Source of the DNA: Escherichia coli | Lineage (GTDB): Bacteria > Pseudomonadota > Gammaproteobacteria > Enterobacterales > Enterobacteriaceae | Length of the DNA stretch: 64,000 bases | Assembly: GCF_003334785.1 (NCBI RefSeq) | Contig: NZ_QOWV01000001.1 | Direction: 5' to 3' (one strand) | Shown here: positions 34,060 to 37,076 of the stretch, in pieces | Numbering within the stretch: position 1 is the stretch's first letter | Layout: the number at the start of each line of letters is the position of its first letter | Program-made: the position numbers and the translations under genes | The notes under the pieces: generated by a model | Databases searched by the model: none | What the model saw: only the letters and a program-made list of their open reading frames with translations | What the model was told of the DNA's origin: nothing

Positions 34060-34707
34060 GTGATTCAGACCTTTTTTGATTTTCCCGTTTACTTCAAATT
34101 TTTCATCGGGTTATTTGCGCTGGTCAACCCGGTAGGGATTATTCCCGTCTTTATCAGCATGACCAGTTATCAGACAGCGGCAGCGCGAAACAAAACTAAC
34201 CTTACAGCCAACCTGTCTGTGGCCATTATCTTGTGGATCTCGCTTTTTCTCGGCGACACGATTCTACAACTTTTTGGTATATCAATTGATTCGTTCCGTA
34301 TCGCCGGGGGTATCCTGGTGGTGACAATAGCGATGTCGATGATCAGCGGCAAGCTTGGCGAGGATAAACAGAACAAGCAAGAAAAATCAGAAACCGCGGT
34401 ACGTGAAAGCATTGGTGTGGTGCCACTGGCGTTGCCGTTGATGGCGGGGCCAGGGGCGATCAGTTCTACCATCGTCTGGGGTACGCGTTATCACAGCATT
34501 AGCTATCTGTTTGGTTTCTTTGTGGCTATTGCATTGTTCGCTTTATGTTGTTGGGGATTGTTCCGCATGGCACCGTGGCTGGTACGGGTTTTACGCCAGA
34601 CCGGCATCAACGTGATTACGCGTATTATGGGGCTATTGCTGATGGCATTGGGGATTGAATTTATCGTTACTGGTATTAAGGGGATTTTCCCCGGCCTGCT
34701 TAATTAA
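34060..34707 (+). CDS. ychE: MarC-family inner-membrane protein
   Basis: 215-aa polytopic ORF starting at GTG 34060. Confidence 0.88.
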   Translation: MIQTFFDFPVYFKFFIGLFALVNPVGIIPVFISMTSYQTAAARNKTNLTANLSVAIILWISLFLGDTILQLFGISIDSFRIAGGILVVTIAMSMISGKLGEDKQNKQEKSETAVRESIGVVPLALPLMAGPGAISSTIVWGTRYHSISYLFGFFVAIALFALCCWGLFRMAPWLVRVLRQTGINVITRIMGLLLMALGIEFIVTGIKGIFPGLLN

Positions 34708-35444
34708 TTCCTTTCAAATGAAACGGAGCTGCCATGCTCCGTTTACTTCGTCATTATTTTTACTTTGTTCCCGCGCAGTTATCAAAAGCAAAAGGAATAG
34801 GTAAAAATATTCTTCTCAAATTACAGTTAGTTATAAGGATTTCCTTAACTGCTTCTCCTCACCATCATGTTATTTTCGCCACATCATAATCCTGGGCTTG
34901 CTGAAGAATAATTGAAATGATATTAGTAATTCCACTGCCTTTGGTAGAGGAAAGTGCTAAATAATAATCAATTGTTAAATTATTGTGCATTTCACTACTG
35001 GAACTGTAATCAGAAAAGATAGACATGCTTAGCCAATCTCTATTTGATTGAATTGAAAGATGTTTGTTAAGGCATGGATGCAAGCTATAGATTCTGATAC
35101 GGTCAATAAAAGAGAATTGCTTAACAATTTTGCAAAATGTATTGGCGAGTAAGAACCGCATTTGGTACTTTCCGGGCAACCGCCAGACGATTCTTTATTG
35201 GTAATGAGAATAATTAACAATTAAAGAGCGTCGCGAAAGAATAATGTGTCTCGACAGGGGAGACACAGTACGAATCGACATAAGGTGATCGTCTGAATCA
35301 CCAGAATAAATAAAGTCGGTGATAGTAATACGTAACGATAAAGTAACCTGACAGCAGAAAGTCTCCGAGCCTGTGCAGGGTCCCAATCCGGGATTACACA
35401 TGCTGGTTAATACCAGTAATTATAATGAGGGAGTCCAAAAAACA

Positions 35445-37076
35445 ATGACCAACATCACCAAGAGAAGTTTAGTAGCAGCTGGCGTTCTGGCTGCGCTAAT
35501 GGCAGGGAATGTCGCGCTGGCAGCTGATGTACCCGCAGGCGTCACACTGGCGGAAAAACAAACACTGGTACGTAACAATGGTTCAGAAGTTCAGTCATTA
35601 GATCCGCACAAAATTGAAGGTGTTCCGGAGTCTAATATCAGCCGAGACCTGTTTGAAGGCTTACTGGTCAGCGATCTTGACGGTCATCCAGCACCTGGCG
35701 TCGCTGAATCCTGGGATAATAAAGACGCGAAAGTCTGGACCTTCCATTTGCGTAAAGATGCGAAATGGTCTGATGGCACGCCAGTCACAGCACAAGACTT
35801 TGTGTATAGCTGGCAACGTTCTGTTGATCCGAACACTGCTTCTCCGTATGCCAGTTATCTGCAATATGGGCATATCGCCGGTATTGATGAAATTCTTGAA
35901 GGGAAAAAACCGATTACCGATCTCGGCGTGAAAGCTATTGATGATCACACATTAGAAGTCACCTTAAGTGAACCCGTTCCGTACTTCTATAAATTACTTG
36001 TTCACCCATCAACTTCACCGGTGCCAAAAGCCGCTATCGAGAAATTCGGCGAAAAATGGACCCAGCCTGGTAATATCGTCACCAACGGTGCCTATACCTT
36101 AAAAGATTGGGTCGTAAACGAACGAATCGTTCTTGAACGCAGCCCGACCTACTGGAACAACGCGAAAACCGTTATTAACCAGGTAACCTATTTGCCTATT
36201 GCTTCTGAAGTTACCGATGTCAACCGCTACCGTAGTGGTGAAATCGACATGACGTATAACAACATGCCGATCGAATTGTTCCAGAAGCTGAAAAAAGAGA
36301 TCCCGGACGAAGTTCACGTTGATCCATACCTGTGCACTTACTATTACGAAATTAACAACCAGAAACCGCCATTCAACGATGTGCGTGTGCGTACCGCACT
36401 GAAACTAGGTATGGACCGCGATATCATTGTTAATAAAGTGAAAGCGCAGGGCGACATGCCCGCCTATGGTTACACTCCACCGTATACTGATGGCGCAAAA
36501 TTGACTCAGCCAGAATGGTTTGGCTGGAGCCAGGAAAAACGTAACGAAGAAGCGAAAAAACTGCTGGCTGAAGCGGGTTATACCGCAGACAAACCGTTGA
36601 CCATCAACCTGTTGTATAACACCTCCGATCTGCATAAAAAGCTGGCGATTGCTGCCTCTTCATTGTGGAAGAAAAACATTGGTGTAAACGTCAAACTGGT
36701 TAACCAGGAGTGGAAAACGTTCCTCGACACCCGTCACCAGGGTACTTTTGATGTGGCCCGTGCAGGCTGGTGTGCTGACTACAACGAACCAACTTCCTTC
36801 CTGAACACCATGCTTTCGAACAGCTCGATGAATACCGCGCATTATAAGAGCCCGGCCTTTGACAGCATTATGGCGGAAACGCTGAAAGTGACTGACGAGG
36901 CGCAGCGCACAGCTCTGTACACTAAAGCAGAACAACAGCTGGATAAGGATTCGGCCATTGTTCCTGTTTATTACTACGTGAATGCGCGTCTGGTGAAACC
37001 GTGGGTTGGTGGCTATACCGGCAAAGATCCGCTGGATAATACCTATACCCGGAATATGTACATTGTGAAGCACTAA
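35445..37076 (+). CDS. oppA: periplasmic oligopeptide-binding protein
   Basis: start placed at MTNITKRSLVAAGVLAALMAGNVALA (signal peptide) for a 543-aa product; ORF track starts 24 codons upstream. Confidence 0.94.
   Translation: MTNITKRSLVAAGVLAALMAGNVALAADVPAGVTLAEKQTLVRNNGSEVQSLDPHKIEGVPESNISRDLFEGLLVSDLDGHPAPGVAESWDNKDAKVWTFHLRKDAKWSDGTPVTAQDFVYSWQRSVDPNTASPYASYLQYGHIAGIDEILEGKKPITDLGVKAIDDHTLEVTLSEPVPYFYKLLVHPSTSPVPKAAIEKFGEKWTQPGNIVTNGAYTLKDWVVNERIVLERSPTYWNNAKTVINQVTYLPIASEVTDVNRYRSGEIDMTYNNMPIELFQKLKKEIPDEVHVDPYLCTYYYEINNQKPPFNDVRVRTALKLGMDRDIIVNKVKAQGDMPAYGYTPPYTDGAKLTQPEWFGWSQEKRNEEAKKLLAEAGYTADKPLTINLLYNTSDLHKKLAIAASSLWKKNIGVNVKLVNQEWKTFLDTRHQGTFDVARAGWCADYNEPTSFLNTMLSNSSMNTAHYKSPAFDSIMAETLKVTDEAQRTALYTKAEQQLDKDSAIVPVYYYVNARLVKPWVGGYTGKDPLDNTYTRNMYIVKH

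Follow-up and report, generated by a model that had tools for sequence, protein, structure and literature searches.

The promoter region and 5′ leader of the Escherichia coli oppABCDF operon were reportedly described by Igarashi et al. in 1997. In E. coli, oppA has a strong promoter, P1, whose start (+1) is the strongest, and a second promoter, P2, at +246 (Carrier, Lalaouna and Masse 2023, PMC9988348). The same study places an RNase E processing site, formerly ‘P3’, at +341 of the leader, followed by a MicF pairing site at +372..+393, which an AU-rich translation enhancer adjoins downstream. It also describes a polyamine-responsive structure in the leader and the binding of Hfq and GcvB at the oppA ribosome-binding site. 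In E. coli, MicF activates oppA translation, and a Northern probe at the MicF site detects no stable leader fragment (PMC9988348). MicF co-purifies with ychE-oppA intergenic RNA (MAPS ratio 14.3), an interaction also recovered in RIL-seq. In Salmonella, the oppA leader gives rise to OppX, a sponge of MicF that occurs as RNAs of 410, 190 and 109 nt (Matera et al. 2022, as summarised in PMC9988348). In addition, Ribo-RET and INRI-seq have revealed an out-of-frame 7-codon ORF with an alternative translation start at oppA.

Transcriptional regulators also act here. Upstream of oppA, ArcA gives two ChIP-seq peaks with one box each in the supplementary tables of Park et al. 2013 (PMC3798270). Likewise, Ziegler and Freddolino 2023 (PMC10127797) describe two strong ChIP peaks of Lrp at this promoter. 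In minimal medium these peaks repress oppA, and leucine makes them disappear. FNR co-regulation of oppA is mentioned in the literature as well.

We analyzed this locus in a stretch of 64,000 nucleotides from an E. coli genome (contig NZ_QOWV01000001.1, assembly GCF_003334785.1), hereafter the window, numbered from its first letter. The interval between the ychE stop codon TAA (34705-34707) and the oppA ATG at 35445 spans 34708-35444, a gap of 737 bp. A sequence-only reading of the window had described this gap as long and AT-rich, and its base composition agrees with that. The G+C content of the gap is 0.373 (37.3%), compared with 0.499 for the whole 64-kb window. The gap is the G+C minimum for its size in the window, with 0.14% of 737-bp windows being equally AT-rich, and the 300-bp minimum (0.32) begins at 34776. 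We infer that the interval is so AT-rich because it consists of promoter, operator and unstructured leader DNA. The genes and promoters of the region are as follows.

30908-33583, minus strand: adhE, a neighbouring gene
34060-34707, plus strand: ychE, the upstream neighbour of the gap
34721-34744, plus strand: hairpin AAACGGAGC-N6-GCUCCGUUU, 14 nt past the ychE stop codon, with a T-rich run about 10 nt further on
34898-34934, plus strand: promoter P1, with a -35 TTGCTG at 34898-34903, a -10 TATTAG at 34921-34926 and its start (+1) at 34934
34934-35444, plus strand: the oppA 5′ untranslated leader, 511 nt from P1
35163-35179, plus strand: promoter P2, with an extended -10 TGgTACTTT at 35163-35171 and its start at 35179 (+246)
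From 35445, plus strand: oppA, downstream of the gap

We are confident that this gap serves to control the oppABCDF operon at both the transcriptional and the post-transcriptional level and that it holds no separate gene. For the comparison across genera we used YchE as an anchor, obtaining 80 loci from species representatives, 78 of which reach oppA. In all 78 measured loci, which extend across Enterobacteriaceae genera, the ychE-oppA gap measures 664-878 bp. The gap alignment comprised 77 sequences, namely the window, 5 other Escherichia and 71 others.

At the upstream end of the gap, the hairpin at 34721-34744 is the probable terminator of ychE, a function suggested by its predicted fold (-14.9 kcal/mol, z = -4.6), which none of 200 shuffles equalled. 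A simple terminator scan skipped this hairpin, owing to the distance of about 10 nt that separates the stem from the T run. RNAalifold returned no consensus structure for the ychE terminator region, which aligns poorly between genera, or for the leader from +1 to +67. On the other side of ychE, we observed that a 17-codon ORF on the plus strand (MLSKGVLSARLFNLIYG, 33976-34029) is the small protein YchT (b4771), which is annotated both in MG1655 and by PGAP and ends 30 nt ahead of the ychE start. YchT may serve as a leader peptide for ychE.

The transcription start positions used here come from the text and the oligonucleotide table of one paper (PMC9988348). The P1 promoter fusion was made with the reverse primer EM5064, whose end maps to 34934. 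Three independent oligonucleotides, EM5064, EM4528 (+341) and EM5095 (deletion from +399), agree on +1 = 34934, so the oppA leader is 511 nt long. The large regulatory leader and promoter region that the sequence-only reading had proposed is thus located by published oligonucleotides. P2 was placed at 35179 by converting the published +246 with this same +1. The hexamers given for both promoters are putative and represent our own reading of the sequence. Those of P1 are at least 95% conserved in the 71 non-Escherichia species, and the block containing P2 (35160-35175) is likewise at least 95% conserved. A promoter consensus scan returned 4 promoter-like sites, against 2.7 expected, and none of them lies at P1 or P2, which makes the scan uninformative for these promoters.

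When set against the published E. coli oppA region, the window carries the same locus. Primer and site sequences are identical apart from one strain SNP, and the matched parts include P1, +341, the delta-399 deletion, the MicF site and the Shine-Dalgarno region. In the window, the P1 -10 element ends with G at 34926 (TATTAG), a base shared by 10 of 11 further Escherichia sequences in the comparison, while K-12 GM4792 and the published K-12 primer EM5064 have T (TATTAT, nearer to the consensus). Judging from this base, P1 of K-12 may be stronger than P1 of most E. coli. We also observed a block at 34868-34887 (GTTATTTT ... ACATCAT), some 47-66 bp ahead of the P1 start, in which conservation across genera reaches at least 95%. 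This block has no counterpart among the published sites compared, as far as the available parts of those sources show, and may represent an UP element or the binding site of a factor.

Two of the most conserved blocks of the gap contain TGTTAA-type repeats, and we therefore looked up ArcA. The following features were identified.

34972-34992, plus strand: ArcA box 1 TTGTTAAATTATTGTGCATTT, at +39..+59 of P1, an exact match to ‘oppA1’ (U00096.2 1298733-1298753) as tabulated in PMC3798270
34993-35107, no strand: inter-box spacer, conserved in length and unconserved in sequence
35118-35138, minus strand: ArcA box 2 ATTTTGCAAAATTGTTAAGCA, upstream of P2, an exact match to ‘oppA2’ (U00096.2 1298879-1298899) as tabulated in PMC3798270

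The offset that converts these U00096.2 coordinates to the window also puts the oppA ATG correctly. ArcA box 1 lies inside a conserved block, and the block around ArcA box 2 (35108-35147) is about 90% conserved across genera. The gap therefore carries direct-repeat boxes of 18-21 bp, of the kind found in ArcA-regulated promoters, that are identical to those tabulated under the ChIP-seq peaks (PMC3798270). Having two ArcA boxes, two ArcA peaks and two Lrp peaks, the locus resembles the ArcA and Lrp promoters with two separated operators, as far as they are described in the parts of PMC3798270 and PMC10127797 on which we draw. Lrp control of oppA had been put forward in the sequence-only reading, and it agrees with the two peaks reported in PMC10127797; the ArcA peaks of PMC3798270 come in addition.

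The remaining features belong to the leader RNA.

35245-35267, plus strand: 8-bp stem-loop at leader +312..+334, with the loop nGACAGGG, 7 nt upstream of the RNase E site
35272-35281, plus strand: RNase E site, with +341 at 35274, inside the near-invariant GAAUCGACG
35284-35302, plus strand: short helix GGUGAU...AUCACC, directly upstream of the MicF site (RNAalifold, 77 sequences)
35305-35326, plus strand: MicF pairing site, published as +372..+393
35327-35351, plus strand: AU-rich putative translation enhancer, its function taken from PMC9988348
35347-35379, plus strand: leader helix pairing 35347-35354 with 35371-35379
35401-35418, plus strand: hairpin GCUGGU-UAAU-ACCAGU, directly upstream of the Shine-Dalgarno sequence, with a consensus helix at 35404-35415
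35425-35448, plus strand: upstream ORF MRESKKQ (ATGAGGGAGTCCAAAAAACAATGA), 7 codons, out of frame, its stop codon TGA overlapping the oppA ATG
35431-35459, plus strand: GcvB (R1) pairing region, spanning a C/A-rich stretch and the oppA start codon

The T7 template oligonucleotide EM4528 opens the +341 transcript at ATCGACATAAGG, which is position 35274. At the RNase E site, CGAC is invariant and AAT occurs in at least 90% of 62 aligned sequences. EM5095 places the published delta-399 deletion at 35332-35351. We predicted the sRNA duplexes with the MicF and GcvB sequences of MG1655. The best predicted MicF duplex in the leader joins 35304-35327 to MicF nt 1-26 (-20.2 kcal/mol), with conservation of about 86% over the corresponding stretch 35308-35325. 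The best GcvB R1 duplex (-25 to -27 kcal/mol) covers 35431-35459/35469, and the oppA Shine-Dalgarno sequence GAGGGAG is at 35427-35433. Both the MicF and the GcvB site were thus recovered computationally at their published places, which bears out the sRNA control of oppA assumed in the sequence-only reading.

Two further observations concern the translation start. MRESKKQ at 35425-35448 is the sole ORF fitting the reported 7-codon ORF, which the earlier reading had missed. Its ATG is conserved across genera, while its peptide is not. Separately, the oligonucleotides EM4466/EM4467 of the ‘oppAUCG’ compensatory mutant (Table S3, PMC9988348) change AGT to TCG at 35432-35434 (+499..+501), beside the Shine-Dalgarno sequence. 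This change differs from the one described in the text of that paper, which concerns AGT at +391..+393 (35324-35326) in the MicF site.

The leader holds at least four conserved helices, one of which, located just upstream of the RNase E site, is strongly covarying. In the short helix at 35284-35302, between 66 and 75 of the 77 sequences preserve the four predicted pairs (35286-35289 with 35297-35300), each of which occurs as 2-4 pair types. Seven predicted pairs of the helix at 35347-35379 are kept in 67-77 of the 77, several of them with CG/UA or AU/GC alternation. The hairpin at 35401-35418, kept in 69-76 of the 77 sequences and of unexceptional single-sequence energy (z = -1.2), sits within the region of the reported polyamine-responsive structure.

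Conservation across the gap is a mosaic. The first conserved island (34868-34987) holds the upstream element, the P1 hexamers, the early leader and ArcA box 1, and the second (35108-35175) holds ArcA box 2 and P2. The third (35248-35327) comprises the covarying hairpin, the RNase E site and the MicF site, while the fourth (35348-35427) contains two helices and the sequence up to the Shine-Dalgarno. Between these islands, identity drops to background.

Our model of this control region is as follows. The ychE message would end at the hairpin at 34721-34744. About 190 bp further on, P1 would start the 511-nt leader at 34934, and P2 would provide a second start at 35179. ArcA would act through one box just downstream of P1 and another just upstream of P2, and the two Lrp peaks would fall in the same promoter region. 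In the leader RNA, RNase E would cut at 35274, MicF would bind 35305-35326 beside the AU-rich enhancer, and GcvB and Hfq would bind the ribosome-binding site. These control elements make up the conserved islands of the gap, as traced in the 71 non-Escherichia species, and the sequence between them drifts freely.

Among the other explanations, the one that survives best concerns a small RNA. The sequence-only reading had named the gap a candidate site for unannotated sRNAs, and the E. coli leader might indeed also release a stable OppX-like small RNA sponging MicF, as it does in Salmonella. The two regions are homologous. The window has a MicF-complementary stretch positioned in the oppA leader, as OppX does, and the MicF site, the RNase E site and the helices flanking them are conserved in Escherichia, Salmonella and other genera. 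The three OppX forms of the Salmonella leader, as summarised in PMC9988348, and the recovery of MicF with ychE-oppA intergenic RNA by MAPS and RIL-seq fit this idea too. However, while MicF is sponged in Salmonella according to that summary, in E. coli it activates oppA, and Northern blots left a stable fragment undetected (PMC9988348). An Rfam 15 scan of 33500-36000 (E <= 1) returned only a chance plant microRNA match, of 20 bits against a gathering threshold of 57. The MG1655 annotation has no ncRNA at the locus, and our consensus scan found no terminator-like site on the plus strand inside the leader. We consider an OppX-like RNA in E. coli unlikely. As OppX has already been described in Salmonella, a stable fragment was undetected in E. 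coli and Rfam gave no match, the proposal of an unannotated sRNA in this gap is neither new nor, for E. coli, currently supported.

The second alternative assigns a gene to the opposite strand of the gap.

34865-35179, minus strand: ORF of 104 codons from TTG 35179, or 98 codons from ATG 35161, antisense to P1 and to leader +1..+246

This ORF (34865-35161 from its ATG) could be a young, E. coli-specific gene, transcribed antisense to the oppA leader. Its 98-codon frame is intact in most E. coli, and PGAP places a ‘hypothetical protein’ (WP_001211520/WP_001211521) on it in 48 of 60 sampled RefSeq E. coli genomes. However, the PGAP start calls are inconsistent, giving 98 aa, 53 aa (the last 53) or no gene even on identical or equally intact sequences, and the curated MG1655 record has no gene at this locus. 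The length of the ORF falls in the top 3-5% of shuffles, with an ORF of at least 104 codons appearing in 2.8% of dinucleotide-preserving shuffles of the gap. Such a length is mildly unusual for one region and expected several times per genome. The consensus scan gave a promoter-like match on the minus strand, though at 34989-34961, which is within the ORF. The ATG at 35161 is preceded at about 7 nt by a weak GGAAAG, so the statement of the sequence-only reading that the ORF lacks a ribosome-binding site was too strict.

The frame itself argues against a gene. It has a stop in the nearest species, which is 94% identical over the gap, and is interrupted by both stops and frameshifts in Citrobacter, Salmonella, Enterobacter and Klebsiella as well as in four more species of Escherichia. 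Conservation of a minus-strand protein was thus looked for, and the frame was broken in all relatives checked: no open frame was found among five other Escherichia species and every other genus examined. Within E. coli, a polymorphism test on 11 alleles, with 34 changes only, distributed the variable sites over the codon positions as 12/9/11. Of these changes, 9 were synonymous (59 sites) and 25 non-synonymous (235 sites), which gives a ratio of about 0.7, and no third-position bias or synonymous excess was seen among these alleles. Two natural alleles, those of O157:H7 FRIK2455 and Ecol_745, are nonsense alleles. The G+C content by codon position is flat as well (0.32/0.35/0.32). Searches of Pfam and NCBIfam with the ORF product returned zero matches. 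A homologue search against 1.84 billion representatives, which combined a word-indexed pass with an exhaustive HMMER pass, yielded nothing beyond close variants or fragments of the ORF itself; the named sources of these matches are Escherichia or Shigella, except one labelled Enterobacter hormaechei.

The ends of the ORF are conserved, and this appears to stem from the P1 and P2 promoter blocks, of which they are the reverse reading. Species with a broken frame still keep these blocks conserved. Like other chance antisense ORFs automatically annotated as ‘hypothetical protein’, this one is a family-less orphan of one species, antisense to functional non-coding DNA, with inconsistent starts. 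It differs from them in being longer than most and in staying open across most E. coli, which is probably due to the promoter constraint on both of its ends. We infer that the frame is open by chance and restricted to E. coli, and we regard a young gene as highly improbable. The minus-strand ORF is very probably non-coding and its annotated CDS spurious, overlapping a real promoter. The sequence-only reading had reported this ORF as devoid of coding character, and indeed the ORF exists and failed every coding test that we ran. Its further statement that the gap holds no convincing gene stands as far as these tests go, and runs against the PGAP annotation in the 48 genomes.

The same stretch is also a repeated target of insertion sequences, between P1 and P2 (about 34957-35097). 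MG1655 carries an IS5 (IS5U/insH21) in the ORF, after about 34960, some 25 bp downstream of P1. In NBRC 3301, an IS5 in the orientation opposite to that of MG1655 interrupts the ORF at about 35032, and NCTC122 has an ISSen4 in it at about 35097. TUM24769 carries an IS1 in the region. These represent three to four independent insertions across E. coli, which also speaks against a gene, and about 1.6% of complete genomes lack a contiguous match to the region. The MG1655 reference thus has 1.2 kb of IS5 between P1 and oppA, in contrast to the window, which is free of IS5, and this insertion complicates the reading of K-12 transcript maps at oppA. The lowest G+C in the window and these repeated insertion-sequence hits might suggest that the gap is a decayed horizontally acquired insert or a mobile-element scar silenced by nucleoid proteins, but we give this idea practically no credence, given that the same gap, block order and flanking genes occur in 78 measured loci across Enterobacteriaceae genera and that no transposase remnant, repeat family or protein homology was seen.

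Within the oppABCDF control region, which is already characterised in detail, two elements may be new: the covarying hairpin upstream of the RNase E site (35245-35267) and the length-conserved spacer between the ArcA boxes (34993-35107). In the hairpin, 8 of 8 pairs show compensatory double changes, and 90.5% of cells are paired, against 69.4% in shuffles. Its covariation score is 0.707, compared with 0.288 for shuffled alignments (0 of 500 reach the observed value) and 0.09-0.25 for slid partners, and the single-sequence fold has -12.2 kcal/mol (z = -3.4). In the loop, the central AGG is invariant, and the flanking C and G are present in at least 90% of the 62 aligned sequences. G-U wobbles favour the plus strand, 51 to 16, and therefore the hairpin belongs to the oppA leader RNA. 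The lone terminator-like site of the consensus scan was the minus-strand reading of this same hairpin, a candidate against which the wobble counts argue.

The spacer has a mean pairwise identity of 0.34 among the 71 non-Escherichia species, yet its length varies with a standard deviation of 1.6 bp (112-126 bp), compared with 10-12 bp for other unconserved segments of the gap. From box to box, most genera have 154-156 bp, whereas the distance in Escherichia is 145-146 bp. This suggests that the spacing of the ArcA boxes is under length constraint, and such a fixed spacing would possibly reflect protein bridging. We rejected helical phasing as the explanation for the 146- and 155-bp spacings: their 9-bp difference is about 0.86 turn only, and we therefore claim length constraint alone. 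A box spacing that stays constant across genera despite a drifting spacer is not discussed in the parts of the published ArcA and Lrp accounts available to us (PMC3798270, PMC10127797).

We tentatively propose, as a possibility that we hold to be rather doubtful, that these two are undescribed functional elements, one a recognition element and the other a fixed operator distance. Based on its covariation and position, the hairpin may be a dedicated element for positioning RNase E, or for a protein that binds GGA loops, such as CsrA. The GGA-in-loop motif is associated with CsrA, and the ACAGGG loop resembles it. Our literature search for a link between CsrA and oppA found nothing, and a role for CsrA here is a guess. 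The spacer, in turn, at about 115-124 bp, may keep the distance between both operators constant so that Lrp or ArcA can bridge them.

With this leader being among the better-studied ones of E. coli, the discovery value of these results is small. They give base-exact coordinates of the published oppA control elements in a non-K-12 sequence, and they mark as very probably spurious a CDS that most of the RefSeq E. coli annotations sampled carry. Work on OppX and MicF or on Lrp bridging could draw inexpensive leads from the covarying hairpin and from the constant distance between the operators. If the proposed role of the hairpin is true, it would control the processing of the leader, and hence OppX or oppA output, across the Enterobacteriaceae.
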